Shown one piece after another: positions 6,849 through 56,929 of a stretch of DNA of 64,000 bases (position 1 is its first letter; every line of letters begins with the position of its first letter). This stretch comes from a bacterium (GTDB taxonomy: Bacteria; Patescibacteriota; Minisyncoccia; Phycocordibacterales; CAIZLB01). The notes under the pieces were generated by a model that worked only from the letters and a program-made list of their open reading frames with translations, did no database searches and was not told the origin of the DNA. The DNA lies in contig JBAXXP010000002.1 in assembly GCA_037127815.1 (NCBI GenBank), forward strand, positions 142,943-206,942, written 5' to 3'. Position numbers and translations under genes: made by a program.

Positions 6849-6865
6849 ACGATTCGATTTTAAGC

Positions 6866-7585: not shown

Positions 7586-7615
7586 TTAGATATTCCAGAT
7601 GATAATCGCACTTCT

Positions 7616-8698: not shown

Positions 8699-8737
8699 CC
8701 CGCCTAGTATGCATTAAGCAGAACGGCGGGGTTTATT
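8699..8737. terminator. Candidate bidirectional terminator
   Basis: A8-CCCGCC ... GGCGGG-GTTTATTTGT, lying between convergent genes (8677 + and 8755 -). Confidence 0.5.
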
Positions 8738-8754
8738 TGTACATAATATTTAAA

Positions 8755-15892: not shown

Positions 15893-18592
15893 CTATTTCA
15901 AATTACTAATAATCCCCCTTGTCAGTGGTCCAAAATACCCCGTAGCAGGAATCTTGTTTGCCTTCTGGAACTTTATAAGCGCAGCCTTGGTAGCAGGTCC
16001 AAAGTATGTAGTCTCCTTTCCCTTGGATCCAACACCAGTCTTTGCAATAGTGAATCCCTTTGCATTAAGATATGCCTGTAATTTTTTAACATCAGAACCT
16101 GTTGAATATACAGATAGGTTTTTGGTGAAAGATACAGGACCTGTTGATGAAATGGATGGTGTTGTTGCAGTAGAAGGTATATTAACAGTGATAGGTGTTA
16201 ATTGTAGAGATTGTGGCGCATACCCACCGCTAGCACCACCTGAATACACAGAAGCAAGAGCAGATGGAACATTTGTTGTAAAAGTTAAATCAGTTGAGGT
16301 TGAAATATTCGCTGATTCATCTCTTGCTGTAATACGGAAGTGGTATACTGTTCCACTTTGTAATCCAATTAATGACAATGCACTAGTTACGCCAAGTGAA
16401 GACACAACTGTTTGTCCATATGAGCTTGATGTTCCGTAATCAACTGTATTTGTTACATTTTTGTCGGTTGTTATGTTAACAACAGCATTATCTGTACCAG
16501 TTAATACACTTGTATTTAATATTGATGGTTTTGTGTTGTCGGCAGAGATAATGGAGATGGAGGCGGAAGAATAATTGGATACATACACCTGACCATTTAC
16601 AATACTTGAGTAAATTGGCTTTGTCCCAACGGATAAGGTCTGTGTTACTGAGTCAGTCACGGTATCAATTATTGATACATTATTTGATGCTTGATTATTT
16701 ATATATAGCTTTGTACCAAGAAGAGCTGCGGAGTTAGGGGTTGAACCAACAGCAATAGTTTTTATCACAGCATCTGTCGTTGAGTCAATAACAGAAACTG
16801 TACTTGATGCGGAATTTAGTACATATAGTTTTGTACCGACAGAGATAGAGTATAGTGGACTTTTGTTAACATTTATAGTTGATGAAACAGTATTTGTACT
16901 TGTATTTATAACGGATACAGTACTTGATGAATAGTTTACAACGTAAAGGTTTGTACCGTTAAAAGTAGAGTGTCTGGGGTTACTATTGACAGCGATTGTT
17001 GCCACCACCGTGTTTGTTGTCGTGTCTACAACAGAGACATTATTTGAGACTGAGTTTGTTATATATAATTTTGTACCGACAAGATTGAGAAAACCGGGGG
17101 ACGTTCCTACTGCTACAGTTGTTGATGAAGCTGTGTCTGTTATTGTGTTGATTATCCTAATATTATTACCACTTCCAAGATAAATATTTGAACCTATTAA
17201 GACAGGCGAAACACATGTTGATGAAAATGAAATAGTTTTAATATTAGTATCAGTCAATGTGTCTACAACAGATACATCAGAAGACCCTGCATTAAAAGTA
17301 TATATTTTAGTACCTACATTAATAATCTCTTGGGGACCATAACCTACTACAACGTAGTTTAATACTGCTTTTGTTACAGCATCAACTACAGAGACATTAC
17401 TTGATCCTTGGTTTGCTATATACAGTTTTGTGCCGACAAGAACTGTTTTGTAAGGTGTTGACAAATAATTGATATTCTGTGGAGTGGTTAACAAAACCGT
17501 ATCCGTTAGCGTATTTATAACTGATATATTTTTTCCAGAGTTGTGCACATACAGCTTTGTCCCAACAAGTACTGAGTACTTTGGTGTCGACGCAACAGCA
17601 ATAGTAGACAAAACACTATTTGTATTTGCATCTATTACTGACACAGTACTAGAACCAAAGTTGTTAACATATAATTTTGTACCAACAGCTGTTGAATTTA
17701 CTGGACCAGCATTAACAATAATAATACCTGTAACTGTGTTTGTTGTAGTATCAACAACAGAAACATTGTTTGTCGTATTATTACTTACATACAGTTTTGT
17801 ACCAATCACAGTTATTGATCTTGGAGAAGTTCCTACAGTTATAGTCGTTGATGAAGCTGTATCTGTTATTGTATCTATTATTTTAATATTATTTGTTGTT
17901 TTATTTACCACATAGAGATTGGTTCCAACAACAACTGACATTTGAGGTGCCGTGCCAACTGTTATTGTTTTTGTAACAGTATCCGTTGTTGTATCAATAA
18001 CAGAAATATTACTTGAGCCTGAGTTTGTCACATAAAGCTTTGTACCCACAAGTGTTGCGGATATCGGGGTGGTGCCAACGTTAATAGCAGAACTTACGGT
18101 ATTCGTTATAGTATTTATAACAGACACATCATTTGAGTTTTTATTTACAGAATAGAGCTTTGTACCAACAAGGATCGAAAAGAAAGCGCCATCACCAACT
18201 ATTATTGTCGCTGTAGGTGTAGTAGAGCCAGTTACGGTATCCATCACATAAACATTATCAGTACCAAGTCCTCCATATGTGGAAACATACAATTTAGTTC
18301 CAACTAGCGTCATATACATCGGAGTATCATCCCCATAATTAAAGGATAATCTTGTGGAAGAAATTAGGTCAGTAGTTGTGTCCATTATTGAGACTGCGAC
18401 AGATGGACTACCTGAGTTTGCAATGTACAGATTAGAACCAACCAGAACTGAGTAACCGGGGGCTGACACTAGACCATTGTTATAAATACTAGGAATATTT
18501 ATGGTTTGACTCACACTATCTGCTTTTACAACATTACAAAAGCTGATAGACAAAAACAAAGCGAGTAATAATATTGTTGCATTTTTTTTCAT
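15893..18592 (-). CDS. Secreted YVTN-family beta-propeller repeat protein with FN3 domain and C-terminal peptidoglycan-binding domain
   Basis: Signal peptide, then 15 or more repeats of roughly 40 aa (VGTKLYV.N..S.NVSVIDT.T.TV). FN3 VYHFRITARDESANIS. The C-terminal roughly 55 aa are identical to those of the neighbouring protease. Confidence 0.7.
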   Translation of the reverse strand: MKKNATILLLALFLSISFCNVVKADSVSQTINIPSIYNNGLVSAPGYSVLVGSNLYIANSGSPSVAVSIMDTTTDLISSTRLSFNYGDDTPMYMTLVGTKLYVSTYGGLGTDNVYVMDTVTGSTTPTATIIVGDGAFFSILVGTKLYSVNKNSNDVSVINTITNTVSSAINVGTTPISATLVGTKLYVTNSGSSNISVIDTTTDTVTKTITVGTAPQMSVVVGTNLYVVNKTTNNIKIIDTITDTASSTTITVGTSPRSITVIGTKLYVSNNTTNNVSVVDTTTNTVTGIIIVNAGPVNSTAVGTKLYVNNFGSSTVSVIDANTNSVLSTIAVASTPKYSVLVGTKLYVHNSGKNISVINTLTDTVLLTTPQNINYLSTPYKTVLVGTKLYIANQGSSNVSVVDAVTKAVLNYVVVGYGPQEIINVGTKIYTFNAGSSDVSVVDTLTDTNIKTISFSSTCVSPVLIGSNIYLGSGNNIRIINTITDTASSTTVAVGTSPGFLNLVGTKLYITNSVSNNVSVVDTTTNTVVATIAVNSNPRHSTFNGTNLYVVNYSSSTVSVINTSTNTVSSTINVNKSPLYSISVGTKLYVLNSASSTVSVIDSTTDAVIKTIAVGSTPNSAALLGTKLYINNQASNNVSIIDTVTDSVTQTLSVGTKPIYSSIVNGQVYVSNYSSASISIISADNTKPSILNTSVLTGTDNAVVNITTDKNVTNTVDYGTSSSYGQTVVSSLGVTSALSLIGLQSGTVYHFRITARDESANISTSTDLTFTTNVPSALASVYSGGASGGYAPQSLQLTPITVNIPSTATTPSISSTGPVSFTKNLSVYSTGSDVKKLQAYLNAKGFTIAKTGVGSKGKETTYFGPATKAALIKFQKANKIPATGYFGPLTRGIISNLK

Positions 18593-37703: not shown

Positions 37704-38288
37704 TTATGCAGCTGCTTGTGTCTTTATACTAGACAAAGCTTTATTGAAGCCTTCAGGTGTTAGAGATGAACCGGAGACTTTTGATAACTTAAGGTCTGCA
37801 ATATTTTTTCCAATCACATACTGTTTATATCCAGAAATAAATTTCTCTTGATACCTTACAGATGTTCTATCTCCTGAGACTGATGTTACATTTGAGTCAG
37901 TAATTATATTATTTGCGATTGTAAGACTAACCCTTATTGTCACATCTCCATCTGGTGTTCCATAAGTACCATCGGCAGTGTATGTTCCATTCTTGTAATT
38001 ATTTGTAGACACACCCTTCTTTGTAGTACCAACCTGCGTTGTTACTACTGCTGGGATGGTGTTGGATGGAGCCTGCGTATTATCATCATCAGACTCAGAA
38101 TCATCTGAAGTCTGATTATTTGCAACTACATTATTTGATACCTCCGATGTACTTTGCTGTGTTGATGTGTCAACAGCTACATTTGAAGAGGTTTTTTCCT
38201 GCGAATATGTGACTATTACAACAGCAAGTACAGCAACGACACCCAGTAATATTCCGTTTTTTTTATACAATTGATTATTTGAATTCAT
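37704..38288 (-). CDS. Secreted FMN-binding-domain protein, probable ApbE flavinylation substrate
   Basis: Signal/transmembrane segment, a Ser/Asp-rich linker, and a C-terminal FMN_bind-like domain (YKNGTYTADGTYGTPDGDVTIRVSLTIANNIITD...GSSLTPEGFNKAL) containing the flavinylated-Thr-type motif context (D-G-x-S/T). Confidence 0.65.
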   Translation of the reverse strand: MNSNNQLYKKNGILLGVVAVLAVVIVTYSQEKTSSNVAVDTSTQQSTSEVSNNVVANNQTSDDSESDDDNTQAPSNTIPAVVTTQVGTTKKGVSTNNYKNGTYTADGTYGTPDGDVTIRVSLTIANNIITDSNVTSVSGDRTSVRYQEKFISGYKQYVIGKNIADLKLSKVSGSSLTPEGFNKALSSIKTQAAA

Positions 38289-39849: not shown

Positions 39850-40006
39850 TAAATTAAAAATTCCTCATAAAGAGGAAAGATAGATGACTAGTCTTATCTT
39901 TCCATAATAATGCTTTCGCACTATCTGGCTGGATTTAGCACCTACTCATTTCTGAGGGTTGCCGATGGGTCGTTGAGCCAGTTGCTCTCGCCATACTCGT
40001 GATACA
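39850..40006 (-). ncRNA. SAM-I (S-box) riboswitch with terminator, in the metK leader
   Basis: Minus-strand sequence GGCGAGAGCAACTGGCTCAACGACCCATCGGCAACCCTCAGAAATGAGTAGGTGCTAAATCCAGCCAG...AAAGCATTATTATGGAAAGATAAG. This aligns with the SAM-I consensus (GAGAGG..GGGACUGGCCCGAUGAAACCCGGCAACC.AGAAAUGGUGCCAAUUCCUGCAG...GAAAGAUGAG). It is followed by a CCTCTTTATGAGG hairpin and a U-run before the metK ATG. Confidence 0.6.
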
Positions 40007-40108
40007 ACTAATTTAGTTGTGGCTACATTGTAGCACTACTCAGTTTGCAATACAATCACGCTCTATTAATTATTTGATTAATGAGCATGATTAGGTTAAA
40101 ATTATCGT

Positions 40109-40513
40109 ATGGAAAGTCTAAAATCATTCAGTCAATTATCAGGAGGAACAGAATCAGAGCCAACTCCTGAATTACAGCAACCTGTTGAGAGAAAAGAAAA
40201 ACATATAGAGATGCTAGAAAAAATGGGTTTATCACCTGAAGATTCTGAAAAGATCCCTCCCAAGGATTTCTTTGATTTAGCGATGAATAAATGTGGATAC
40301 ATGGCTCCAAATTTTAGAGATAGTTCAAGAAGAATCATACTTATGAGTACATATCAAAAAGCATTCATAGAATACTATGGACTTAAGGGACCAAAGAAAA
40401 ATGTTGAATTCTCCAAAATTTTCGACAAAATGTATAGAGATGGAGAAATAGATTTCATACCTCATACAAAGGGCAAAGATTCGTTTTTAGCTTCACCTAT
40501 AGTTGAGGAATAG
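40109..40513 (+). CDS. Hypothetical protein, 134 aa
   Basis: Acidic ORF with no recognised family. Confidence 0.4.
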   Translation: MESLKSFSQLSGGTESEPTPELQQPVERKEKHIEMLEKMGLSPEDSEKIPPKDFFDLAMNKCGYMAPNFRDSSRRIILMSTYQKAFIEYYGLKGPKKNVEFSKIFDKMYRDGEIDFIPHTKGKDSFLASPIVEE

Positions 40514-40729: not shown

Positions 40730-40997
40730 ATTCTCGGCTACTAAAAATTATCGTTAATTTATAAGAATCCAGAAGCTACAACAGAAGATACAAAGATTAT
40801 TTCTTAGTAAGATATTTTCGAACCTGTCATTAGGAGATGATAACATAACGCCAGAATACACATTGGCATTTAAATTTCTTACAGAATGACTACCTGTAAT
40901 AAATGATAGTTTAGAACCACAAAACTATGGCTCTAACAAAGGAAAAGAGAGCACTTTCGTGCCCTCTCATCCTGTCTTGCTCCGCGGGTAGGATTCG
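40730..40997 (+). pseudogene. Remnant 3' end of a serine-recombinase gene plus a copy of the tRNA-Asn 3'-end core: relic of an older integrated element
   Basis: 40799..40997 is about 95% identical to 50998..51195 (the recombinase C-terminal codons plus CCGCGGGTAGGATTCG). The homology decays further 5' toward 40730. No intact ORF upstream. Confidence 0.6.
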
Positions 40998-41116
40998 CCC
41001 CTCGCCCTTCGGGCTCGAAATTCGTGCCCTTATCTCGCGGAATCAGGCAAAAGAAAAAACGCCAGCTGTGCTGACGCCTTTTCTTCTGCTGCTCCGAACT
41101 TGGGGCGATGTTCGAA
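40998..41116. repeat. attP-derived arm (P'), copy A
   Basis: CCCCTCGCCCTTCGGGCTCGAAATTCGTGCCCTTATCTCGCGGAATCAGG... is homologous to the arm at 42282..42400. Confidence 0.5.
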
Positions 41117-42211
41117 TTATTGTTGTAAATTCTGAATTAATGGATTTTCAATTGTAAATATATCGCTCGCTGCATTCATACCAAGACCTGAATTTTCTAT
41201 TTGAACTTGATAAAGACCTGGTAAAATATCTGACGGTATATTCCAAGTATATGTACCTATTGATACACCCGGGTTCGGATTAAAATATGTATAATCATGT
41301 CTAGATGAATCATAAATTCCCCAACCTAACATAGCTGAAATGGTTATTACACGCATTGGACCACTCCAGTTAATTTGGACTGACTTTCCTGCTTTCCAGA
41401 CTGTTGATTTGTTTGGGGAGATTATTTTTACAGCAGAACCTCCATTTGTATTTGAAGTATTAGCAGATGTGGATACATCATCAAGCACGCTATTAGTTTT
41501 ATTAGTAAAAATAATAGTTGGAATAATCTCATCGATTCCTACGCCACCAACATTGTTCACAGCACGGCTATAACTAGAAATTTCAAGAATATTCCCTTTT
41601 GAATCCACAGGAATAAACACCATCTCTCCCCCACCACCAGATATTTCATTATGATAAATAACCTCAATCGCTTTTTTACCTCCCACAGTTATATTTCTTT
41701 TTATCACATTAGAATACTCGGGATTCTTGACCTCATTATCTACCGTTTCCTCATAAGTAAAATTTCTTCCAAGCACCTGGTTGTAACGAATACCCTCTCT
41801 AAAATCTAAACTATTAGCAAAACTAATTTCTATACCCGTACTCTGTTCACTGACCGTAGGTTGCCCCATTGTTGGTGGGTATTTAAAAGTAAAATCTATT
41901 TTATCATTAGTGTATGTTGACCAATTTTCATTTACATCATTACCCAAGGTTGGAACAACCGGAAACACATCAACTGTAGTTTTTAAAGTTTTTTTATTAA
42001 TATTGTCTGAATTTTTAATAATCGAAGATGTGGTTGATGAGGAATTATTTGTTAATTCTTTTACAGGCGAAGGATTCTCTGGCGTAGATTCTTGTTTTAT
42101 TTTATTGTTTGAAGTGTTTTGCATATAAAAATATGTTGCCACCCCAACCCCTAATAAAACTACAACCATCATCATTAGAGGAACTATAAATCCTCTTTGT
42201 GTATTTTTCAT
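41117..42211 (-). CDS. Secreted hypothetical protein (signal/TM anchor, Ser/Thr-rich linker)
   Basis: N-terminal FIVPLMMMVVVLLGVGVATYFYM; it is the only gene between the att-like copies A and B. Confidence 0.5.
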   Translation of the reverse strand: MKNTQRGFIVPLMMMVVVLLGVGVATYFYMQNTSNNKIKQESTPENPSPVKELTNNSSSTTSSIIKNSDNINKKTLKTTVDVFPVVPTLGNDVNENWSTYTNDKIDFTFKYPPTMGQPTVSEQSTGIEISFANSLDFREGIRYNQVLGRNFTYEETVDNEVKNPEYSNVIKRNITVGGKKAIEVIYHNEISGGGGEMVFIPVDSKGNILEISSYSRAVNNVGGVGIDEIIPTIIFTNKTNSVLDDVSTSANTSNTNGGSAVKIISPNKSTVWKAGKSVQINWSGPMRVITISAMLGWGIYDSSRHDYTYFNPNPGVSIGTYTWNIPSDILPGLYQVQIENSGLGMNAASDIFTIENPLIQNLQQ

Positions 42212-42266
42212 ATTACAATTGTATCAGAATCAAATATTATATACATCTTTTTATTTTCACTCTAAT

Positions 42267-42400
42267 CGCGGGTAGGATTCGCCCCTCCTCCGTCGAAATT
42301 CGTACCCTTCTCTCGCGGATCAGTTAGAAATAAAAATGCACCAGACAAGCTGGTGTTTTTTATTCTAATGCTCCGCGGACTTGATTCTGTTCGACTAGCA
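42267..42400. repeat. att-like core copy B (CGCGGGTAGGATTCG) plus a P' arm with an embedded bidirectional terminator
   Basis: The core is at 42267..42281. The arm CCCCTCCTCCGTCGAAATTCGTACCCTTCTCTCGCGGATCAG is homologous to copy A. A hairpin CACCAG-ACAAG-CTGGTG with a T6 run lies at 42339..42362. Confidence 0.5.
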
Positions 42401-42480
42401 CTCATTGAGGATGGTTTGGATGATTTAGCGAAGATTGAGAAAGTTAAAAAGAAACAGAAGTCCAATATATAATTTAATAC

Positions 42481-43473
42481 TTATTCAGGTTGGGTTGTCT
42501 CTTTCATTTTTTTGAATCTAGCTAAAGCTTCTGGTGTAACTTTTTCAACAGAACTCATACCGTCTGTTACGCTTAAATATTCTCTAAATCCACCATTTAC
42601 TCCAACTAATCCCATTTCAGATGGTTTTGCAACTTCTTTTGTAATTCTTCCCATAGGATCAGCATCCCAATCTGGTTCCTTATTAGAAGCTATTCTTCCA
42701 GCTCTTACATCACGGACGAACCATCTTTTTCCATCAGCAATTACTTCCTCTCCAACATTGAAATGTTGTCCGTTAAAAAGAAAAGCACCCTCTTTTAATT
42801 TGTCTTTATTTTCATCAGTCATGTATTTTACTTTACGACCTTCCATGCCGTCCTCCATTTCAGTGGCACGGCCATTAAAAGCTCCGACTTGCTTTGGTGG
42901 ATTCTCATCTTTACTAGATCTGTCGCTCTCCAGAGTGGAAATTTGATCCTCGAGTGTCTTAATCCTTGCTCTTTCACTTGAGATACTGGGAGGTTCTTGG
43001 GAAGAGCCCTCTTTCATTCCTAAACTACCTCGAATTGACGACAGCTTGTCTGCCGTAAACTCGATACCATTTTTAATTGTTTCAATAGCAGAAACACGTT
43101 TCAATACTTCTCCACCAATTTCTTGTTCAGACAACATCTCTTCCTTAGGTTCGGGATTTTTTTCAACATTATTTTCTAAGCCTGATTCTATAGACTCACT
43201 CCCAACAAAGGTTATGTCCTGACCATCTTCAATCTCTGCGCCATTAGCGTCATGTTTCTTTTCCTGTGGAACTGGATGATTTTTTTCAAAGGAGATCATT
43301 GTTTGTATATTATAATTATTAGTAAAGTATACAACATACAAGGAAAAAAAGAAGCCCATACCTAGGTATAAAAATAACCCCATATTAATGGGGCTATTTT
43401 CGTCGGCTCGCTTGGCAGTTCGCATTCCGAACCTTTGACTGGTCAAAAGCTGTGGGGGACATAGAAACAACAA
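42481..43473 (-). CDS. Hypothetical membrane-anchored coiled-coil protein (element cargo)
   Basis: Hydrophobic MGLFLYLGMGFFFSLYVVYF segment, then a charged coiled-coil region. The real start is probably the internal Met near 43383. Confidence 0.45.
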   Translation of the reverse strand: MLFLCPPQLLTSQRFGMRTAKRADENSPINMGLFLYLGMGFFFSLYVVYFTNNYNIQTMISFEKNHPVPQEKKHDANGAEIEDGQDITFVGSESIESGLENNVEKNPEPKEEMLSEQEIGGEVLKRVSAIETIKNGIEFTADKLSSIRGSLGMKEGSSQEPPSISSERARIKTLEDQISTLESDRSSKDENPPKQVGAFNGRATEMEDGMEGRKVKYMTDENKDKLKEGAFLFNGQHFNVGEEVIADGKRWFVRDVRAGRIASNKEPDWDADPMGRITKEVAKPSEMGLVGVNGGFREYLSVTDGMSSVEKVTPEALARFKKMKETTQPE

Positions 43474-43623
43474 ACAAAGAAATTAATCACCTGTTGTCTT
43501 TAATATAAAGATAATATCGTAAGTATCGTCTGTGGATTTTGAAAGGCTGGGAGGGGATACTCCTTTTACACTAGTCCCCGTCAGTTATAGAAAAAAAGTA
43601 GTGTTACCTATTAACTTAAGTAA

Positions 43624-44208
43624 TTATAAGTTATGCGTAGAATTCTTGATTGTTTCATTAACGATATCAGAAACAGTCTTTGTAGATACTGCCTTTCCAC
43701 AAATTGCTCTCAATTTTTGTTGACCAACTTCTCCATAAATCCATACGAAAAATACCGTGTCAGGATTATCTATAAAAGATATGTCTGCCTGTACTCCCCC
43801 ATAATCATTATCTGAGGCATCCAAAATTACAAACTTGCTTTGATAATATTTCTTACTAAAATTATTCAAACCACAATTCATATCCTTGCTTATATTCTCT
43901 AAAGCTTCTACTTCCAATCCATTATTTGTTCCATCCAAATATCCATTTAGAGCAGTACGAATTTGTTTTATGTATGGACTATTAAAAATTTCTTCTTCAG
44001 TTGGGTTTTTTCCAATTACAGGAGGGTTTTCTACCTCGAGGTTTTTTATAGCACCTTCTATTTTAGCTGGATCTACAGTCCCCTTTTGTGTTTCAGAAAC
44101 AACAGGAGCTTTAGTAGGTTGAACTTGAGACCAATACAAAACACCAGCTAAGATAACCAGAGCAGAGACGATAACTATTATGTGTTTATATTGATTTATT
44201 TTTTTCAT
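43624..44208 (-). CDS. Secreted hypothetical protein (element cargo)
   Basis: Signal/TM segment IIVIVSALVILAGVLYW; no family recognised. Confidence 0.5.
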   Translation of the reverse strand: MKKINQYKHIIVIVSALVILAGVLYWSQVQPTKAPVVSETQKGTVDPAKIEGAIKNLEVENPPVIGKNPTEEEIFNSPYIKQIRTALNGYLDGTNNGLEVEALENISKDMNCGLNNFSKKYYQSKFVILDASDNDYGGVQADISFIDNPDTVFFVWIYGEVGQQKLRAICGKAVSTKTVSDIVNETIKNSTHNL

Positions 44209-44328
44209 ATGGTTATTCTATCACACGCAACTAAAATATGTCTTAAGAAAAACAATATCAGATGGACTTTTGGATACATTATGGAATAATTAAGTAGTAA
44301 TTTAGTTATGATTTTCCAATGAAATAAT

Positions 44329-44637
44329 ATGAAAAAACACCCATCTATAAGACAAGTCAAATATGCCTACGGATTAATGAATGAAAATAAAACCAAACAG
44401 CAAATAGCCCTTGATTCTGGTTTCTCGCCAAGTACTGCCCGAGTTCCCAACTCAATCGAAAATAAGATAGGTTTTAAGCTTGCTATCGCTCAGATAGCTG
44501 GAGAGATGGAGAACGTCGCTATGAAGCTCATGTACGAGCTTGAGGTGCGTGATATGAGTAAGATGGACAACAAGACCTTACTTTACTCTCTTGATGTAAT
44601 TTCAAAGACTCACGAGCGTTTTATGGCCAAAATCTAA
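44329..44637 (+). CDS. Small HTH protein, possibly terminase-small-subunit-like or a recombination directionality factor
   Basis: The N-terminal KQQIALDSGFSPSTARVPNSIENKIGFKLAIAQ resembles the HTH of phage small-terminase / regulatory proteins. It is on the same strand as the recombinase. Confidence 0.35.
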   Translation: MKKHPSIRQVKYAYGLMNENKTKQQIALDSGFSPSTARVPNSIENKIGFKLAIAQIAGEMENVAMKLMYELEVRDMSKMDNKTLLYSLDVISKTHERFMAKI

Positions 44638-44777
44638 TAAACATAAGGAATTTCCATACTTCAACATTCAAACTCCACTTCCCTTTATATTTATTTAAAA
44701 TGTGGTAGTATTTTAGTACAACTTAATAAAAGAAGTAGCCTAAACCTATGTTGAAATATATAGGCATGGTGAAAAAA

Positions 44778-44882
44778 GTCCTGACAGACATAAAAAACCC
44801 ATCATATGGGGTGTCTGTCAGGCCGTACTGGGAAACTGGTATTGGAGAGCGCAAGCTCTCCACTCATGTGGTGGGCTTTTTG
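44778..44882 (+). ncRNA. Candidate structured small RNA or cis-regulatory leader
   Basis: An 11-bp stem CCTGACAGACA...TGTCTGTCAGG encloses a small hairpin. It is followed by GGAGAGC-GCAA-GCTCTCC (GNRA tetraloop), then CCAC-TCAT-GTGG, then GGGCTTTTTTG. The whole lies 35 nt upstream of the 44917 ATG. Confidence 0.3.
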
Positions 44883-44916
44883 CGTTCTTGATTATATTTA
44901 TTTTAAATAAAAATAC

Positions 44917-45813
44917 ATGAAAAAATATCTTTCAATTATAGTCCTACTTATAATAATAACTCCTTCGATTGCCCTAGCCTCGTGGTGGAATCCCTTCACT
45001 TGGGCATGGCTTGGTAAAACTATAAATACTCAAACTATACAGGAATTGTCAACTACAACATCATCGGTTGCAACATCAACTTATAAGAATATTCATGCAA
45101 CTACTTCAATAAATTTAATAGGTGATAAAGCTAAAAAGTCTTCAAAAACAGAAGTTCATATTCAAAAACAATCAAATGTTGAACCTTATATATCATCAGT
45201 TCAAGATCTGCCACAAAAAACTAACGAGGTAGAAAAAAGTTCCTTATTAAAACAAGATGAATCTATTAAACCATATATAGATATTAAGGTTAATGGGCAA
45301 GATGGTCCAATTACCGTAAATTTGAACTCTTACGTTACTGTTTCTTGGACATCAAAAGGTGTTCTGTCTTGTGTTTCAAATAAGAACAACAAGTCACTTT
45401 CTGGTAGTGAAATTATAAATATTAATGCACAAACAACAAACCCTTTCGTAATTAAATGTGTTTCTACCGATGGAGATAATGTGTCTGACTCAGTGTCACT
45501 AAATATCAACGGTTCAAATATTGAAAATATAGATCCTTATGGTGTAGTACCCTTGAAATCAGGCGATGTTTATACTCCAGATCAACTAAACTTAATTGAC
45601 TGTACATATCATGGAACTAACTGTAAACCAATGACCACCATTTACCAAGATGTTCAACCTGCTTCTGTTCAAAAACAAGTCTTTGATTGTTGGTCATATC
45701 AAGTAGAACAGAAAAAACTCGATGAGAGTTATGCCCAAAATGGAACCCTCTTTTCTGGTGCCAGAGCAAATGCAGATAGCGCCCTAAAAGCAAAATATGC
45801 GAGTTGTTTTTAA
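44917..45813 (+). CDS. Secreted hypothetical protein (element cargo)
   Basis: Signal peptide MKKYLSIIVLLIIITPSIALA, a Ser/Thr-rich linker, and a Cys-containing C-terminal domain. Confidence 0.5.
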   Translation: MKKYLSIIVLLIIITPSIALASWWNPFTWAWLGKTINTQTIQELSTTTSSVATSTYKNIHATTSINLIGDKAKKSSKTEVHIQKQSNVEPYISSVQDLPQKTNEVEKSSLLKQDESIKPYIDIKVNGQDGPITVNLNSYVTVSWTSKGVLSCVSNKNNKSLSGSEIININAQTTNPFVIKCVSTDGDNVSDSVSLNINGSNIENIDPYGVVPLKSGDVYTPDQLNLIDCTYHGTNCKPMTTIYQDVQPASVQKQVFDCWSYQVEQKKLDESYAQNGTLFSGARANADSALKAKYASCF

Positions 45814-45822
45814 TTCAAGTAT

Positions 45823-46533
45823 ATGAAAAAAATAATAACACCATTTATAATAGCAATTATTTTTATAACTACTGCTTACCAGTGGAATCCAGAAAATTTA
45901 AATAACCCTATTGATAAAAAGACCACAAATCAATCTGAGCAAAAACCTGTATCCGAGGCGCCTATTTCTACTACCACAAAAAATGTTCATGAGGAACCAA
46001 AAAAGATAGTCACTGAAAATACCGAAACTACGTCTATTTCAAAAACCAACACAATACCAACAAAAAATACAAAATCGAATATTGCAACTAGTACAACCGA
46101 TCCCTATGGTATTTTATCAACATCAGGTATTGCATACACCCCAGCAGAATTAAAAGCCATTGAAAGTGCTTATGCTGGAGTTTATGACCCTGCGATCAAT
46201 ACAGCCTTAAGCAAAGTTGATACTATGCAAAGAGAACGATCTGCAATTGCTGAGGCATCATTAGAATCATCATCAGGAAGAAATGTTGGTACAGTGGTTC
46301 TCTCTGAATCTGGATGTGATTATTATTTAGTTGAAACAAGTTTAGGCTATTCACTACTCGAATGGTATGGAGGTTTTGTCCAAGTAGAAGGGGGTATTAT
46401 ATATGGGAACCTAAACAGTTATGGGATGAAAGATGTCACAAACAGGAGCGGACGAAGCGGTAGAGCTTGGGTGGAGGACTACATGCTTTCAAAATCAAGA
46501 GCGATGGAAAAATATTACGATAAGTGTAATTAG
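45823..46533 (+). CDS. Secreted hypothetical protein (element cargo)
   Basis: Signal/TM segment MKKIITPFIIAIIFITTAY and a Thr/Ser/Asn-rich linker. Confidence 0.5.
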   Translation: MKKIITPFIIAIIFITTAYQWNPENLNNPIDKKTTNQSEQKPVSEAPISTTTKNVHEEPKKIVTENTETTSISKTNTIPTKNTKSNIATSTTDPYGILSTSGIAYTPAELKAIESAYAGVYDPAINTALSKVDTMQRERSAIAEASLESSSGRNVGTVVLSESGCDYYLVETSLGYSLLEWYGGFVQVEGGIIYGNLNSYGMKDVTNRSGRSGRAWVEDYMLSKSRAMEKYYDKCN

Positions 46534-46814
46534 CAAAACTTGTATTAGACAAGACTAAAATTTGACTTTTACAAATAACTTGCTAGGCTTATATAGAAGC
46601 TCTTTGCATCGTAGTAAATTTTCTGGAGAATTGATTTGTTGTATGGGACAGTTATGATCAGTCAAATTCAAAGGGAATGTTCAGAACAATATATTTAAAA
46701 TAGATAACTCCCGCCTTATGGTAAGTTATCAAGGGTAAATGTGTGAAGCTGACAATCTAATAGGTTTTTCCTATTAAGTTGTCAATTTTACATATTAACA
46801 ATCATGTAGAAAAG

Positions 46815-46841
46815 ACAACCCCCAAAGGGTTGTTTTTTGTT
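46815..46841 (+). terminator. Rho-independent terminator
   Basis: ACAACCC-CCAAA-GGGTTGT followed by a T6 run. Confidence 0.6.
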
Positions 46842-46901
46842 TAGATAGAAGCAACAAACCTATTTATTCAAAACTCCAACACTTACTTATTAATATTAAT
46901 C

Positions 46902-49415
46902 TTGTTTTGTGTGATAGCTCTAAGTGAAGAATCTAATCAGTTACCACTTAGGGTTATCACACGGCATGTAACTGATTATATGAACAATATAAACATCCTC
47001 GCCAAAACTTTTGGCGAACAAAAACGTTGGGTAAATTACAAATTAATTGAAAAAGACGGTAAATTAATAAAGCCTCCATTCAAAACAGACGGGAGTCTCG
47101 CATCATCGACCGACAGCGGTACATGGTCTAACTACGAAGATGCTATAAAATCATCTCCTAATGTTGGCATAATCTTTACTCCAGATAAATTACTTCTTGG
47201 TATTGATATTGATCACTGTCTTGAAGACGGGGTGATTTCTCACGTAGAAAAAGAAAAGATTGAGAAACTAGTCATCAAGGCAAATACTTATACAGAAATA
47301 TCCCCCTCCAATACAGGACTGCATTTATTTCTTTCTTTGACTGAACCTCTAGAAATTCTAAAAAATAAAAGTGCCCCTTTTGAAGTTTATATATCTGGGC
47401 GTTATTTTACTGTAACAAACAACCCATACATAGAAGCTCGTCCTGTTCGTACAGTAACACCAGATGAAGCTTTTAAACTACTATCAATTATTGGTTATCC
47501 TTGGAATAAAAAAGAAGACTTTCAACAAAATATTGTAACGCTTAATACTTTATCACTCAGTGATGAAGAGATTATAACTAAAATATTCTCTTCAAAAAAT
47601 GGAGCCAAAATTAAATCACTTTACAATGGCGACATATCAACATACGGTGACGATGATTCTTCAGCAGACCTAGCATTATGTTCTTACCTAGCTTTTTGGA
47701 CACAAAAAGATCACAGTCAGATTGAACGTGTATGGCTCAATTCCCCTCTTGGTAAAAGAGAAAAAACTCAATCTCGTAAAGACTATAGAGATAGAACTAT
47801 CGAGACTGCGATAAATGGTTGTTCAGAAGTATATTCAAAATCAAGACAACAGAAAGAAGATAAGTCTGACGTTAACAATATTCAGACGGAAGTAGCAAAA
47901 GATAACACATTACTTAATGAGATTTGTAACCGAAGTGATGTAACACTATTTTGTGATGAGCAAAAAGATACTTATATTGCCTTAGACATTTTGGGGCATC
48001 AAGAGATTTGGCCTTGTGATGGTAGTTCAATAAAAAATTTACTAGCTTATATGTCTTGGAATAAAAACAAAAAACCTCTAGGTTCAGAGAGTACTAAAAG
48101 CATAATAGCCGTAATGGAAGGTAAGGCACGTTTTGAAGGAAAAGAGATTAAATTACACAATCGTGTAGCTTGGCACGATGGCAGTCTTTGGTATGATCTT
48201 ACAAATAAACAGTGGCAGGCAATAAAAATATGTGAAAGCGGTTGGGAAATTATAGGCAAACCACCAATCATCTTTAATCGATACAGCCACCAGCAGTCTC
48301 AAATTACTCCGAATCAAAACGGAAATATAGACTTATTTTTAAGGTATATAAACATAACTAATCCAGAACACCGTTTGTTATTCTTAGTTTTTTTAGTTAG
48401 TTGTTTTATCCCAGATTTTCCTCATGTAATGCTCGTGATATTTGGAGCCCAAGGATCGTCTAAATCAACTTTTTCAAAATTGACGAGAATGACAATAGAC
48501 CCATCAATGATTGATGTTGTTGCGTTACCAGAAAAATAAAATGAACTTGTACAGATACTTGCGCATCATCACGCCGTATTTTTTGACAATGTATCTCACG
48601 TCAGTGAAGATACATCAGATACAATTTGTCGAGCAATTACTGGTAGTGGTTTTTCAAAAAGAAAGCTCTACAAAAATGATGAGGATATCATATACAAATT
48701 TAACAGATGTTTAGGAATTAACGGAATAAACCTTGTTACTATTCGACCAGATTTACTTGAAAGAAGCCTACTAATAGAATTGGAAAGAATTGACCCGACA
48801 AAGAGAAAGCATGAAAAAGAACTCTACGAGAATTTTGCACAAGATTTACCATCTATTTTGGGAGGAATATTCGATATATTAGTAAGAACTTTAGAAATCA
48901 AGTCTACAATCAAAATTAACTCTCTACCTCGTATGGCAGACTGGACTATTTGGGGATGTGCAATTTCAGAAGCATTAGGATATACAAAAGAAGATTTTTT
49001 GAAGGCGTATGAAAATAATATCAACAGGCAGGCTGAAATGCTGTTAAATGAAAATATCATAGCTACTACGTTATTTTCATTCATGGAAGATAAATCAAAT
49101 TGGAGAGGAACTGCTAGCGAACTTCTGGATAGTCTATATTCAAAGACTCCTACGGATTATTTCGCTAAGTATGAGAAGTTTTGGCCAAAAAGTGCTGGCT
49201 CTTTATCTCGTAAATTAAATGAACTAAGCACGTATCTAAAGCAAATGGGAATAGTTGTAAACATTAGTACTACTGGCAAGGAAAGGTACATTGATATAAA
49301 AAATATTTCTAAAGCTAAGGAATCTATAGAGAAAAATAAGCAGATTCCTATTGGCGTTAGAGATGACGATACTTACGATATTTTATCAATACCAAAAAGA
49401 GACATTTTTGCTTAG
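46902..49415 (+). pseudogene. Prim-pol (bifunctional primase/polymerase N-terminal domain) fused to a D5/P4-type primase-helicase NTPase, interrupted by a single in-frame TAA at 48537..48539
   Basis: The N-terminal KRWVNYKLIEKDGKLIKPPF matches the prim-pol motif. Walker A GAQGSSKST lies before the stop. Reading on in the same frame (frame 0) gives NELVQILAHHHAVFFDNVSHVSED... (Walker B hhhhD) and joins the ORF 48780..49415 without a frameshift. Confidence 0.65.
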
Positions 49416-49431
49416 ACCCTTAACACCAACC

Positions 49432-49593
49432 AAGATGTTAAGCAAAGAAATTATTAGTGAGTTTCAGGAGGTTCTAAAAGAAGAGTACGGCAGGAACGTA
49501 ACCTTTCAAGAAGCATCCTCAATACTTTGTGGTTTGGTGGCCTATTTTGACACGCTTGCAAAAATAAACCATCTTATGCAACAAGACCCCTGA
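49432..49593 (+). CDS. Small hypothetical protein immediately upstream of the recombinase
   Basis: MLSKEIISEFQEVLKEEYGRNVTFQEASSILCGLVAYFDTLAKINHLMQQDP. Its position suggests a possible accessory or directionality factor, but it is unverified. Confidence 0.3.
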   Translation, partial: KMLSKEIISEFQEVLKEEYGRNVTFQEASSILCGLVAYFDTLAKINHLMQQDP

Positions 49594-49635
49594 GTGATAT
49601 ACTGGGTAAAATACTTATAAATTAATCTAACAACC

Positions 49636-51189
49636 ATGGAAACTAAAGCTGTATCATACTGTAGGGTGTCATCTAAAGAACAAGAGGAGTCTGGCTATTC
49701 CCTACCATCACAGGAGAAGTTACTTGCTGAGTATGCAAACAGGAAGGGATTAGATGTGACTAAAGTATTTGCTGTAGCTGAATCTGCAAGTGGAGCAAAA
49801 CAAAGAAAGATATTTAGTGAAATGATGGAGTATATGGAAAATAAGGGCATATCTATATTGTTATGTGAAAAAGTTGATCGTCTATCGAGAAATTTAAAAG
49901 AAGCTGTGGTTGCAAATGATTGGATTGAGGCTAATCAGAAAAGACAAATTCACTTTGTAAAACAAAATCTTGTTATACACAAAGCTTCTAAATCTGATGA
50001 AAAATTTCGTTGGGATATTGAGATTGTTTTGGCGAAGAAATTTATTTCAAATTTATCAGAAGAGGTTAAAAAGGGACAGAAGGAAAAAATATCTCAAGGT
50101 TGGTTACCAACAAAACCCCCTCTAGGATATATAACGACTGGAGACAAAGGTCACAAAATACATCTAGTTGATACAGAAAAATCTTCTTATATCAAAAAGA
50201 TGTTTGAGCTTTATTCTACAGGCAACTATTCCATACCCGCCCTTGTTGAGGTCATGTACACAGATGGTTTCAGAAACAGAGAGGGTAAAAAGGTTGGAAA
50301 GTCTAGATTACACGACCTGTTATCAGACCCTTTCTACTGTGGAGAAATGAAATGGAATGGCCAAATATATTCCGCAAAACATAAACCTATTATCACAAAA
50401 GAACTATTTGATTTAGTTCAAGAAAAGATGAATCGTAAGTTTAAAATTCCTAGATATCAAAAACATTTACCAATATTTAAAGCTAAAATCGAATGTGAGG
50501 AATGTAATGGAACTATTACATGGGAAACCCAGAAGGGTCATTGGTATGGTCATTGTAACCACCATAAAAAATGTGGTCAAAAAAATTGGTGGAAACAAGA
50601 AAAGGTTGAGGAAAGGATATTCCCATACTTTGAAGGAGTAGCACCCAAAACCGCTAAGGTATTACAAATTATTGAAAGAGCAATTATAGAGAGTCACAGT
50701 GATGATACAAAAGATAATTCTAATTCACTAATTGAAGTTAATAGACGTATAGAGACATCACAACGTAGACTAGAGGCAATTTATGAAGACAAGATTGATG
50801 GAAAAATTTCTATTGATTTTTACAACAAGAAATTTACTGAATACACAAAAGAAAATGAGGAGGCTACAAAATTATTAGTCAAAGCCAGTAAGGGAAATAT
50901 AAAATATTATGAATCGTGTTTCAAAATTCACGAGCTTGCTTCAAATGCTTCACTTATCTACAAGAGCCCTAAAGCCACAACGGAGGACAAAAGACTACTT
51001 CTTAGTAAGATATTTTCGAACCTGTCATTAGGAGATGATAATATAACGCCAGAATACACATTAGCCTTTAAATTTCTTACAGAATGGCTACCTGTGCTAA
51101 ATGATAGTTTCGAACCACAAAACTATGGCTCTAACAAAGGAAAAGAGAGCACTTTCGTGCCCTCTCATCCTGTCTTGCTCCGCGGGTAG
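49636..51189 (+). CDS. Large serine recombinase (resolvase/invertase-type N-terminal catalytic domain, recombinase domain, zinc ribbon, coiled coil)
   Basis: Catalytic-serine context AVSYCRVSSKEQ, a resolvase fold, DUF/recombinase domain, a zinc ribbon CEECNG...CNHHKKCGQ, and a C-terminal coiled coil. The stop codon lies inside the tRNA-Asn 3' end. Confidence 0.9.
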   Translation: METKAVSYCRVSSKEQEESGYSLPSQEKLLAEYANRKGLDVTKVFAVAESASGAKQRKIFSEMMEYMENKGISILLCEKVDRLSRNLKEAVVANDWIEANQKRQIHFVKQNLVIHKASKSDEKFRWDIEIVLAKKFISNLSEEVKKGQKEKISQGWLPTKPPLGYITTGDKGHKIHLVDTEKSSYIKKMFELYSTGNYSIPALVEVMYTDGFRNREGKKVGKSRLHDLLSDPFYCGEMKWNGQIYSAKHKPIITKELFDLVQEKMNRKFKIPRYQKHLPIFKAKIECEECNGTITWETQKGHWYGHCNHHKKCGQKNWWKQEKVEERIFPYFEGVAPKTAKVLQIIERAIIESHSDDTKDNSNSLIEVNRRIETSQRRLEAIYEDKIDGKISIDFYNKKFTEYTKENEEATKLLVKASKGNIKYYESCFKIHELASNASLIYKSPKATTEDKRLLLSKIFSNLSLGDDNITPEYTLAFKFLTEWLPVLNDSFEPQNYGSNKGKESTFVPSHPVLLRG

Positions 51190-51249
51190 GATTCGAACCT
51201 ACGACCAATTCGTTAACAGCGAACTGCTCTACCACTGAGCTACCGCGGA
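51178..51249 (-). tRNA. tRNA-Asn (anticodon GTT)
   Basis: Reverse complement TCCGCGGTAGCTCAGTGGTAGAGCAGTTCGCTGTTAACGAATTGGTCGTAGGTTCGAATCCTACCCGCGGAG. Anticodon loop CTGTTAA. Confidence 0.85.
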
Positions 51250-51368: not shown

Positions 51369-51974
51369 CTACCTTGTCACCATTATGTCCCCAGAGGCTG
51401 TAGTTTCAGCTACATCAGACTTAACTGTCACTCTTCCTGTTATGTCTTGAAGTATCAGATATCCTGTATCATAGCTGTCTGGAGTCTCCCAGAAGGCGCC
51501 TGTTTTCTTTGGATCAAAGGGTAATGAGGAAATATAGGTCGGGGAAATACAATCCGCTATATCAAACACTCCAGCCCCAACTCCACTCTTCATAGGCTCA
51601 AATGTTGTTGGTATATTTTTTGCCTCCCCATTACAACTGAATACCCCACCATTATCTGCAATGTTTTGACTCACTGCATTTAGAACTGATGCAACATTTG
51701 CGGTACGTTGAGAATCTCTTGCTGTCTTAAATTGCTTGGCAGGATTCACTGCGACCAAAACAACAGTTGCAAGAATTGCCAGAATTCCAATTACCACTAA
51801 AACCTCTATCAAAGTAAAACCAGCAGTAGCACCAACTGTACTGGATACATTAGTATTTTTCTTCACAAACTTATACTTCTTCAAAAAATTTGAAATAGCG
51901 GTCTTTTGTGCCACGCTTTGATTACGCGTCACAGGAACAGCTCTTCCAATTACATTTATTTTATTCATGTTCAA
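51369..51974 (-). CDS. Type IV pilin-like protein with an unusually long leader
   Basis: Prepilin cleavage/methylation motif AGFTLIEVLVVIGILAILATVVLVAV, preceded by about 50 residues. Confidence 0.7.
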   Translation of the reverse strand: MNMNKINVIGRAVPVTRNQSVAQKTAISNFLKKYKFVKKNTNVSSTVGATAGFTLIEVLVVIGILAILATVVLVAVNPAKQFKTARDSQRTANVASVLNAVSQNIADNGGVFSCNGEAKNIPTTFEPMKSGVGAGVFDIADCISPTYISSLPFDPKKTGAFWETPDSYDTGYLILQDITGRVTVKSDVAETTASGDIMVTR

Positions 51975-56272: not shown

Positions 56273-56929
56273 TCAGTTTCCCATGCAATAATCACCTAAT
56301 TCAGAAGGCCCTTCTCCCCAATCTATTATTTCCTTATTCCAGTAGGAACTCGTAAATGGAAAAGAAGGTTGACCATACAATTGACTATCAATATCTTGAA
56401 GATAAATTTGTATATAATAATTATTAAATGTTTTAATACCACCGCAAGAGTAGTAGCGTGAAAAATACTCCGATAACTCAACAGGATCGGTGACATAAGC
56501 TATATACATATAACCCAACTTAGGAAGAGAGATTAGTGATTTAGTCAAATCACCCATATATAGCTTTTTTGTTTTAAGTAAAGCGCTTACATTATCAGTA
56601 ACTTCAGTTAAGGTAGATGCGGGTACACCAAGTTGGTACTGATCTTGAAGCCAAGAGCCTAGAGGAAATTTCGGATATGATCCAAAACTTGTCCTATATA
56701 ACTCCAAGGCCTTGGCAAATTCCTCCATATCACTTCTCACCTTTGATATCTGAGCCTTTTGTCTCGCTGTATTTACTGAAGCCAAAACAACAGATGAAAG
56801 CAAAGCAATAATTGAAATAACCACCAGAAGTTCAATTAGAGTGAAGCCAGCTTTCTTGAACCTAGATCTAGAGCCCCCCCCTATCAGTTTTGAGATTCCT
56901 TCCTCTTTGTATTTTTTAAAAATTCGCAT
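56273..56929 (-). CDS. Type IV pilin / pseudopilin-like protein
   Basis: KAGFTLIELLVVISIIALLSSVVLASV prepilin motif after a 27-aa leader. Confidence 0.7.
   Translation of the reverse strand: MRIFKKYKEEGISKLIGGGSRSRFKKAGFTLIELLVVISIIALLSSVVLASVNTARQKAQISKVRSDMEEFAKALELYRTSFGSYPKFPLGSWLQDQYQLGVPASTLTEVTDNVSALLKTKKLYMGDLTKSLISLPKLGYMYIAYVTDPVELSEYFSRYYSCGGIKTFNNYYIQIYLQDIDSQLYGQPSFPFTSSYWNKEIIDWGEGPSELGDYCMGN

Follow-up and report, generated by a model that had tools for sequence, protein, structure and literature searches.

A LOOT RNA-led slot of exported proteins with phage-like segments in tRNA-targeting elements of a Patescibacteriota bacterium

An integrase, a primase-helicase and a small terminase form the hallmark layout of phage-inducible chromosomal islands (PICIs), and Staphylococcus aureus pathogenicity islands (SaPIs) and like elements carry secreted host-interaction proteins. 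Exclusion or conversion proteins include Ltp of Streptococcus thermophilus phage TP-J34, Sie of lactococcal phages, Imm and Sp of T4, and Llp of T5; Ltp probably targets a phage protein entering the envelope during DNA injection. Tycheposons, which are cyanobacterial, use tyrosine recombinases and carry mainly nutrient-acquisition genes. Patescibacteria make up a large share of bacterial diversity, and because very few have been cultured, the mobile elements and phage defences of these candidate phyla are, to our knowledge, almost unstudied. Here, we analyse a 64,000-nucleotide stretch (hereafter, the window) of contig JBAXXP010000002.1 (positions 142,943 to 206,942, forward strand; assembly GCA_037127815.1) from a bacterium of the GTDB lineage Patescibacteriota; Minisyncoccia; Phycocordibacterales; CAIZLB01, and describe in it an island of small integrating elements whose main copy places two predicted exported proteins, F and G, behind an RNA of the LOOT family. 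Related elements fill the same slot with shuffled exported or membrane proteins, and we tentatively read it as an envelope module, possibly for phage exclusion.

The island spans from metK to a tRNA-Asn gene; the SAM riboswitch upstream of metK (39891-40008, minus strand) directly abuts its left end. Its open reading frames (ORFs) are labelled A to G, with J downstream (Table 1). Small integrating elements are stacked head to tail at the 3' end of the tRNA; one copy (about 42262-51195, ~9 kb) is nearly complete, and two to its left are decayed. The two copies of a 211-nt direct repeat (40792-41002 and 50990-51200, 95% identical) each join the 3' end of the recombinase gene to the final 20 nt of the tRNA. 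The main copy runs C, D, E, LOOT, F, G, primase-helicase, J, recombinase; the leftmost remnant keeps A, a 70-aa two-helix ORF and a recombinase tail, and the middle one keeps only B, which stands alone between two att-like copies. Repeated integration into a tRNA gene regenerated by each insertion, followed by decay, is the simplest reading. No empty integration site was found among 19 metK contigs reaching that side, all of which carry the island; it is identical in at least seven assemblies, and its exact proteins are recorded in at least six assemblies beyond the source.

An initial annotation of the window had proposed a non-phage integrative, plasmid-like element, and this held up. The recombinase matches Resolvase (PF00239, E = 6.7e-20), Recombinase (PF07508, E = 1.1e-15), weakly Zn_ribbon_recom (PF13408), and a PHROG integrase (E = 1.5e-70), and is 69% identical to that of a related locus, L015/L017 (loci carry L numbers throughout); catalytic, Recombinase and zinc-ribbon domains together with direct repeats at a specific target place the element among large serine recombinase elements. 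Searches of ten island ORFs against Pfam, PHROGs and NCBIfam returned no capsid, portal, large terminase or tail gene, so the element does not qualify as a prophage. The same three databases gave no VirB4-type ATPase, coupling protein, FtsK-like translocase or relaxase, so it does not qualify as conjugative or mobilisable either; the replicative helicase is its only P-loop protein. An inovirus-like or other membrane-virus reading was also tried and dropped, no morphogenesis ATPase or other hallmark gene being found with Pfam and PHROGs.

Like PICIs and P4-like satellites, which also measure ~10 kb, the element combines a primase-helicase with a site-specific recombinase and a possibly small-terminase-like DNA-binding protein; its variable regions are rich in defence systems, and some of its protein segments also occur in a phage group. 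However, it uses a large serine recombinase instead of a tyrosine integrase, genes for capsid remodelling or packaging interference were not recognised, E resembles terminases only weakly, the family is absent from IMG/VR, and any helper relation is hypothetical. Staphylococcal cassette chromosome mec (SCCmec) is likewise non-conjugative and non-phage, has serine recombinases and its own helicase or primase (Ccr; Cch/CCPol), bears accessory genes for surface or resistance functions, has the 3' end of a conserved gene as its insertion site and accumulates in tandem; the recombinase of the window gave weak NCBIfam matches to CcrA, CcrB and CcrC (80 bits against cut-offs of 700 to 900). The SCCmec target is rlmH, whereas here it is a tRNA gene, the hosts belong to candidate phyla, and LOOT and the exported-protein slot are added. 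We know of no LOOT-like RNA or exported-protein operon described for tycheposons. Those elements are also small, pair a recombinase with a primase-helicase, target tRNA genes, form tandem piles with decayed remnants and carry niche-related cargo, but their recombinases are tyrosine recombinases, in contrast to the large serine recombinase here. Tycheposons are elements of Prochlorococcus (bioRxiv 10.1101/2020.12.28.424599). In its workings, the element in the window comes closest to such small, non-conjugative integrating elements with a replicase of their own, but it does not appear to belong to any of these three groups and is neither a prophage nor a conjugative element. Its unusual features are the orphan structured RNA that heads the slot, the predicted export of proteins chimeric for phage late genes, and a conserved motif after the signal.

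Relatives were found through the contigs of F homologues (34, all metagenome proteins) and D homologues (45); a scan of species-representative genomes with an alignment of E added five loci (Nomurabacteria, Taylorbacteria, unclassified metagenome-assembled genomes [MAGs] and one labelled Bacteroidetes). Nine distinct elements share one order: variable left genes, E, LOOT, a run of small genes, primase-helicase, a small ORF, recombinase and tRNA. A conserved 103-aa cytoplasmic protein often precedes the primase-helicase, and the target tRNA, which is Asn, Glu or Tyr, overlaps the recombinase stop codon. In seven of the nine, the slot from LOOT to the replication genes is filled almost wholly by a shuffled set of small proteins that are exported or membrane-bound, in most relatives two to six of them; the F family is represented in six elements and the D family in three (L015/L017 counted once), and other occupants include zinc-ribbon-plus-helix proteins and a PsbP-like protein. 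Identity to relatives is 53 to 57% for D, 64 to 72% for E (L012, L015, L018) and 28 to 40% for F. D, E, J, the helicase and the recombinase are 53 to 69% identical in L015/L017 and have corresponding genes in L018, and the surroundings of F homologues are ordered alike in L011, L012-14 and L015-17 (small protein, F, other small proteins, primase-helicase, recombinase).

Strongly hydrophobic N-termini occur in 20 of 30 slot genes against a background of 19 of 54 (Fisher p = 0.007). The exported-protein pattern is real only at this family level, across relatives. Two of the elements lack exported genes, namely L028 (E, helicase and recombinase, no LOOT) and L029/30 (LOOT, then cytoplasmic proteins), so the module is accessory and not essential. 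The slot occupants in the window are F and G; D lies just upstream on the other strand, though relatives have it inside the slot. B, a protein of similar kind, survives in a decayed copy, and C is probably ordinary cytoplasmic cargo. The word cargo, which the initial annotation applied to all of these genes, is too loose; it partly suits an accessory module, but D, E and F are recurrent family genes at a fixed place in relatives. In the variable region on the other side, most identifiable genes of relatives are defence genes (restriction-modification, GmrSD, MutH/Dcm). L012 has a DpnII-type restriction-modification system there, L027 a large reverse-strand gene block read as type I restriction-modification by inspection only, L015 a pair of large proteins, and the window C.

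The L015 pair (336-4497) consists of a 368-aa protein and a 1020-aa partner, neither with a Pfam match, and a homologue of the large protein lies in L031 (4422-6812). Motifs HIILHGD and SYCYSGGG (His...Cys) of the 368-aa protein recall caspase-like/CHAT proteases, and the pair may be an undescribed defence pair.

Export of F and G was predicted from their N-termini. Signal peptides and anchors were judged by hydropathy and inspection only; for a Sec signal with a signal peptidase I (SPase I) site, a positive n-region, a hydrophobic core of 10 to 15 residues and small residues at -3 and -1 were required. F begins with MKKYLSIIVLLIIITPSIALA/SWWNP, which reads as a classical Sec signal with an A-x-A cleavage site (n-region MKK, core YLSIIVLLIIITPS, site IALA/S), and G begins with MKKIITPFIIAIIFITTA/YQWNP, a diverged version of the same leader (n-region MKK, core IITPFIIAIIFIT, site TA/Y); both have the parts of an SPase I site. 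No lipobox ([LVI][ASTVI][GAS]C) lies within the first 45 residues of any island ORF, so none is predicted to be a lipoprotein. The N-terminus is invariant in the F family, MKKYL...PS(I/V)A(L/F)A/SWWNPFSW (junction ASWWNPFSW). An SWWNPFSW leader is also found on otherwise unrelated candidate-phyla proteins, including FN3 or EGF-like ones, and its position right behind the predicted signal-peptidase site would suit a possible role in sorting or anchoring; a literature search for WWNPF gave chance string matches alone. The AlphaFold2 model of F was poor overall (pLDDT 60), with a disordered linker (35-116), an Ig/PKD-like sandwich and a confident C-terminal helical hairpin. Foldseek against the PDB gave generic Ig/PKD matches alone (E above 3e-3), and the model supports an Ig-like domain and nothing beyond it.

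The phage connection came from remote comparison. Most of the 81 homologues of G are ~350 aa long and signal-less and match only its central segment, at 50 to 70% identity. On their contigs (~43 to 47 kb), the gene lies late in a long same-strand operon, with an amidase and holin pair and a tail-fibre-like protein upstream and a giant 1137- to 1681-aa protein immediately downstream (ART-PolyVal domain in L023); genes for a helicase, a D5-type primase and an RNase T-like protein are on the other strand. An alignment of the ~350-aa family, used to search IMG/VR, found 54 viral contigs, many of 41 to 46 kb. Compared with this phage family by hhalign, the F family gave a probability of 98.5% (E = 3.3e-15, 110 columns) with shared motifs KY.DPKTG...(S/T)P.EYA and DPY.V...SG..YSP.EL..I..AY.G, and the C-terminal hairpin of F (YQ.EK..LD....NGTLFSGAR) matched the phage gene immediately upstream (BLASTP 2e-6, hhalign 77%). 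Residues 80-145 of G matched 54 of 54 IMG/VR loci (up to 60% identity, E down to 4e-22), the middle segment of the F family 49 and its C-terminal segments 20; in the 12 loci listed, the C-terminal match lay ~580 to 730 nt upstream of the middle match. Apart from members of the F and G families, nearly all proteins found to have the shared segment were these signal-less phage proteins. As judged from these alignments, the F family puts a secretion signal in front of fused pieces from two neighbouring phage late genes, whereas G has a piece of one.

The initial annotation had seen no recognisable phage structural genes, which stands for Pfam, PHROGs and NCBIfam but not for the remote comparison, where phage-derived segments appear in F and G. 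It had also taken homology to virion proteins as a sign of a prophage; the segments are there, and yet the element is clearly not one. LOOT was not found in the phage loci, tblastn of the phage-type protein against deposited phages gave no match, and single-protein scans of IMG/VR with the primase and with G gave no relatives, such scans reaching close relatives only. The phage group (L023, L032 and IMG/VR loci L034-L087) is widespread and has a late operon almost without PHROG or Pfam annotation, and glycosyltransferase genes are present.

Our preferred reading, to which we give a probability of roughly 40% as a joint statement, is that a non-phage element uses the slot as an accessory envelope module, which displays phage-derived segments and possibly serves superinfection exclusion; the function is the least certain part of it. 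The element would express the module in its carrier cell and so alter events at the cell surface. Sec would carry F and G out of the cytoplasm, and their linkers would keep them near the wall or membrane. The segments on display there would be copies from late-operon proteins of the ~45-kb phage group. These segments could compete with the phage proteins, or mask their target, in the compartment where those act, and the likeliest purpose would be to block phage infection. Indirect support for exclusion comes from the predicted export, from the phage late segments shared by F and G, and from the defence cargo of the elements. Like prophage exclusion proteins, the slot proteins are small, exported or anchored, element-encoded, dispensable for the element, fast-evolving and mosaic, and would act in the envelope. 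They differ in that their carrier is no prophage, no sequence or fold similarity was found, and no lipobox is present; the resemblance of the slot to phage ejection-module genes is drawn from gene order. We know of no exclusion genes that characteristically stand behind a conserved structured RNA.

Several points weigh against this reading. The function of the module is deduced entirely from sequence. The two phage late proteins are putative virion or ejection proteins because of their position next to the giant ART-PolyVal protein, an assignment drawn from gene position and neighbours alone, and PHROGs and Pfam give them no name. The shared segments could instead be a cell-wall-binding module of both phage and cell proteins: the C-terminal domain of G is common to exported candidate-phyla proteins with EGF-like repeats or a peptidoglycan-binding domain, and one relative of it carries PG_binding_1. 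F of the window itself matches the phage genes only weakly, its separate middle and C-terminal segments reaching 2 of 54 loci (E ~1e-3); G and the other members of the F family supply the strong phage signal. Phage and element contigs share samples 3300001097 and 3300023301, and such co-occurrence is weak evidence for the phage host. D has homologues in plain chromosomal contexts as well (e.g., a 49%-identical relative), and its best Foldseek match among viral structures (E = 0.023) is not significant. Within this window, finally, the enrichment of exported proteins is statistically indistinguishable from background.

The count behind that comparison had been given by the initial annotation as five of six cargo ORFs with a signal peptide or transmembrane (TM) anchor. 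All five ORFs that it listed are present as it placed them and are also called by NCBI and other gene callers in the source MAG (MEI6042461-70), and four bear out the claim: B (hydrophobic residues 7-25, signal-anchor type), D (residues 9-27, anchor), F and G. The hydrophobic stretch of C sits in an N-terminal extension that exists only with the first TTG start of the longest ORF. NCBI starts C at M59 (43299; 272 aa), and a search of 1.84 billion representatives found 10 distant homologues; all six examined have hydrophilic N-termini, and four align to C only from about residue 77-80. Given this start and these N-termini, the extension does not appear real, so the count becomes 4/6 (4/7 once A is added), and C is probably cytoplasmic. 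A comparable N-terminal hydrophobic segment is carried by 19 of 54 non-island ORFs of the window (35%), against which 4/6 gives a binomial p of ~0.12 (0.38 to 0.54 under a looser any-TM criterion). As for the domains described, Ser/Thr/Asn (S/T/N)-rich linkers were confirmed over 40-residue stretches in B (55%, residues 31-70), F (48%) and G (55%), and Cys-containing C-terminal domains in D (two Cys), F (six) and G (two) but not in B, which has none.

Such figures would suit a reading in which nothing specific is carried, ordinary envelope proteins without a common function having been picked up by a decaying element. Besides the 35% background and the non-significant 4/6, it could draw on a chromosomal gene of the window (37704-38288) with the same anchor and S/T/N-linker layout, on the chromosomal homologues of D, on the broken helicase and degraded left copies, and on the signal-plus-WWNP leader of unrelated proteins. 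Nevertheless, F and D turn up again at one position in elements that share only 26 to 69% recombinase identity, the slot enrichment holds family-wide (p = 0.007), and 45 to 52 of 76 genes directly downstream of LOOT in the wider metagenome have hydrophobic N-termini. The segments of F and G, moreover, are common with phage and not with chromosomal proteins, and we regard an assortment without a common function as quite improbable.

The initial annotation had preferred a surface or host-interaction cargo, adaptive for episymbiosis. Stated fully, the exported proteins would be adhesins or host-interaction factors directed at the partner of an episymbiont, and the element merely their carrier between strains. 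This would fit the Ig-like domains in B (Kre9_KNH) and F (Ig/PKD-like fold), the long S/T/N-rich linkers, typical of stalks holding binding domains off the cell, the absence of the accessory module from L028 and L029/30, the mosaic gene content expected of interface proteins, and the SaPI precedent. Yet Pfam, PHROGs and NCBIfam place D, F and G in no adhesin, toxin or enzyme family, the specific homologies of F and G lead only to phage late genes, and 6/6 F-family contexts examined are in elements and none in a chromosome. The carriers appear to be Parcubacteria-type bacteria, and the elements otherwise carry defence rather than colonisation genes. With F and G pointing to a phage late operon and D generically NTF2-like, the proposal found no specific support, and we consider it unlikely.

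The small protein E raises another alternative. By tblastn, it had five weak matches in phages, two of them small terminase subunits. Compared by hhalign with those two proteins, both Pfam-verified members of Terminase_2, an alignment of E gave probabilities of 50% and 81% (E = 1.7e-4 and 1.2e-5), starting at the very beginning of the Terminase_2 DNA-binding domain; E may thus resemble small terminase subunits in their N-terminal, DNA-binding portion. Four E-family members gave no match to Terminase_2 (PF03592), even at E up to 10, E and its profile found nothing meaningful in the PDB (the 14L match, E = 0.14, is noise), and no E-family gene was found in IMG/VR. L104 and L122 have small proteins with a GGN(I/V)..AM..AGY...TA motif at the position of E, upstream of LOOT; these look like a more typical small-terminase-type helix-turn-helix (HTH) and could bridge E to Terminase_2.

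On this basis, the slot proteins could be dissemination machinery, either a minimal, envelope-spanning DNA-transfer device or, with a TerS-like E, part of a satellite of the ~45-kb phage that hijacks or modifies helper virions. The alignment of E with two verified small terminase subunits, the PICI-like layout, the segments that F and G share with helper-like phage late genes, and the identical 97-nt ends of L015 could be enlisted for it, but several points run against it. No VirB4, coupling-protein, FtsK-like or relaxase gene was found in the element, with a replicative helicase as its one P-loop protein. L028 and L029/30 keep E, helicase and recombinase without exported genes, so the slot genes are unneeded for the basic life cycle. 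Cleavable Sec signals would take the proteins out of the cytoplasm, the site of tailed-phage assembly; the E family is missing from IMG/VR, and its similarity to small terminases is below the reach of Pfam. The ends of L015 (12,866 nt; 1-97 and 12770-12866) fit a 12,769-bp circle. We withdrew them as proof of a circular episome, however, the overlap lying in the recombinase 3' end, where a tandem array explains it equally well. Dissemination by the slot proteins is, in our estimate, a poor prospect, below even partner interaction.

The RNA that heads the slot belongs to Rfam family LOOT (RF03000), scoring 80.4 bits against a gathering threshold of 46.4 over the whole model (1-121/121); eight related LOOT loci score 70 to 91 bits. 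LOOT takes the same position in L012, L015, L016, L018, L027, L029/30 and L031. Among seven aligned elements, an extended -10-like element is conserved ~25 nt upstream, and the tail GTGGTGGGCTTTTTG, scored as terminator-like, is invariant and ends 35 to 45 nt before the first slot gene. The apical CCCAUCAU is also invariant and could pair with the invariant tail GUGGUGGG, an invariance that leaves covariation uninformative. A pattern scan of metagenomes found at least 120 loci, of which 80 were examined (L096-L175). An ORF starts within 250 nt downstream in 76, with a strongly hydrophobic N-terminus in 45 and a borderline one in 7, clear ASWWNPF leaders among them. E-family genes lie upstream of LOOT in 3 of 73 loci, with similar small HTH proteins in two others, and a serine recombinase is present in 25 of 80, the loci often being short. 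LOOT is therefore broader than the element family and precedes an exported- or membrane-protein gene about two thirds of the time. A strict tie of LOOT to E or to exported genes was considered and rejected on the 3 of 73 loci with E and on L029/30, where LOOT precedes cytoplasmic proteins. The literature found on LOOT gives no function or context for the RNA.

A sharper form of the exclusion reading would make the LOOT-led slot an unrecognised anti-phage device, in which candidate-phyla bacteria would use exported chimeric decoys, built from pieces of two adjacent ejection or virion genes of the phages that attack the carriers, to block DNA entry at the envelope, with LOOT and its terminator-like tail controlling the timing. 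We hold this form to be doubtful. If it were true, it would give the orphan structured RNA LOOT its first biological context.

D was modelled from a 41-sequence alignment (pLDDT 85); in the model, a membrane helix and a short second helix lead into an NTF2/cystatin-like domain. The natural structures that match it best are the VirB8-like proteins TraM and TraH (pIP501) and TcpC (pCW3), which likewise combine one N-terminal membrane helix with an extracytoplasmic NTF2-like domain. However, the match values are generic for the NTF2 fold, designed NTF2 proteins score higher, no other conjugation gene was found in the element, and D homologues are also chromosomal. As modelled, D is a generic membrane-anchored NTF2-like protein; tblastn against plasmids gave no match. 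B matches Kre9_KNH (PF10342) over the whole profile (E = 4.9e-6; 27.6 bits against a cut-off of 24.6; residues 265-354, profile 1-94/94), whereas its PsbP_2 (PF18933) match of 23.8 bits falls below the cut-off of 27. A clear PsbP_2 protein in the L018 slot (39.7 bits) has no direct similarity to B. C had no Pfam, PHROG, NCBIfam or PDB match, direct sequence searches of the PDB with B and C gave nothing meaningful, and A had neither a family match (Pfam, PHROGs, NCBIfam) nor a homologue among the related elements.

Table 1. Features of the island in the window and aligned LOOT regions of relatives
Feature	Coordinates	Strand	Description
ORF A	40109-40513	+	134 aa, hydrophilic, no anchor; leftmost decayed copy, between SAM riboswitch and recombinase remnant
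Recombinase-gene 3' remnant and att core	40792-40997	+	20-nt att core TGCTCCGCGGGTAGGATTCG at 40978-40997; junction of decayed older element and next
ORF B	41117-42211	-	364 aa; predicted anchor, S/T/N linker, weak PsbP-like middle, Kre9/KNH Ig-like C-terminal domain, no Cys
Third att core, degenerate	42262-42319	+	With element-side arm; left end of main copy; repeat families D2, D3, D7; att-copy alignment
ORF C	42481-43299	-	272 aa from M59; acidic, Cys-free; variable cargo; initially listed to 43473 (TTG start)
ORF D	43624-44208	-	194 aa; predicted N-terminal membrane helix, short helix, NTF2/cystatin-like alpha+beta domain, 2 Cys; recurrent gene
ORF E	44329-44637	+	102 aa; small helix-turn-helix-like protein, conserved in element family
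LOOT RNA	44737-44885	+	RNA 44737-44860, then terminator-like hairpin and T-run 44859-44885; ends ~35 nt before F start codon
LOOT region	44700-44930 (window); 4685-4910 (L012); 4951-5176 (L015); 8716-8942 (L018)		
ORF F	44917-45813	+	298 aa; predicted Sec signal, disordered S/T-rich linker, Ig/PKD-like domain (121-198), Cys-containing C-terminal region
ORF G	45823-46533	+	236 aa; leader, S/T/N linker, phage-like segment ~80-145, C-terminal domain ~146-236 (2 Cys)
Primase-helicase	46902-49415	+	NrS-1-type prim-pol N-terminus, P-loop helicase C-terminus; Pfam and PHROG matches
ORF J	49435-49593	+	~52 aa, between helicase and recombinase; conserved
Large serine recombinase	49636-51189	+	517 aa; last 13 nt overlap tRNA-Asn 3' end
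tRNA-Asn (GTT)	51177-51249	-	Integration target; 3' 20 nt = att core; ARAGORN, Rfam, repeat D2

The primase-helicase is interrupted by a single in-frame TAA (48537-48539) right after the Walker A motif and is colinear across it with a 756-aa protein of L015 (57% identical, one tblastn alignment). The same split is present in 7/7 assemblies covering the gene, and it could reflect a recent inactivation or possibly read-through. Because of this stop codon, the copy in the window can probably no longer replicate on its own. ORF J is 54% identical to 52-aa ORFs of L015 and L017, and L018 has an equivalent 52-aa ORF.

At the integration end, the recombinase frame enters the target tRNA on the opposite strand, both in the window (51177-51189) and in L012 (10552-12279, tRNA-Glu 12218-12290); in L011, it runs right across tRNA-Tyr (6284-8011, tRNA 7873-7955). 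The C-terminal tail of the recombinase, partly encoded by the tRNA, may thus differ between integrated and excised states. About 45 nt of the tRNA 3' half follow the recombinase stop codon in L015 and L016. The element-side att arm (40998-41050 and 42282-42319) looks like a decayed tRNA, in which the stem TCCGCGG...CGCGGA closes off a core similar to a T-arm.

Outside the island, type IV pilin-like genes with an FTLIE-type motif and an N_methyl domain (51369-51974 and 56273-56929, minus strand) lie directly to the right of the tRNA-Asn site. Two adjacent large ORFs (13765-15873, 702 aa, and 15893-18592, 899 aa, both minus strand) each have an N-terminal hydrophobic segment, and their C-terminal 76 to 79 residues are in common (72% identical).

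These loci represent a recurrent, compact, tRNA-targeting type of element, with defence systems on one side and an exported-protein operon on the other. Should the shared segments be ordinary wall-binding modules, the finding would amount to an annotated mobile island. If F and G were decoys, they would constitute a surface-level defence made of the phage's own parts and a handle linking an uncultured phage group to its hosts. Whatever the function, the orphan LOOT family gains a defined genomic setting, and ASWWNPFSW is flagged as a possible sorting signal.

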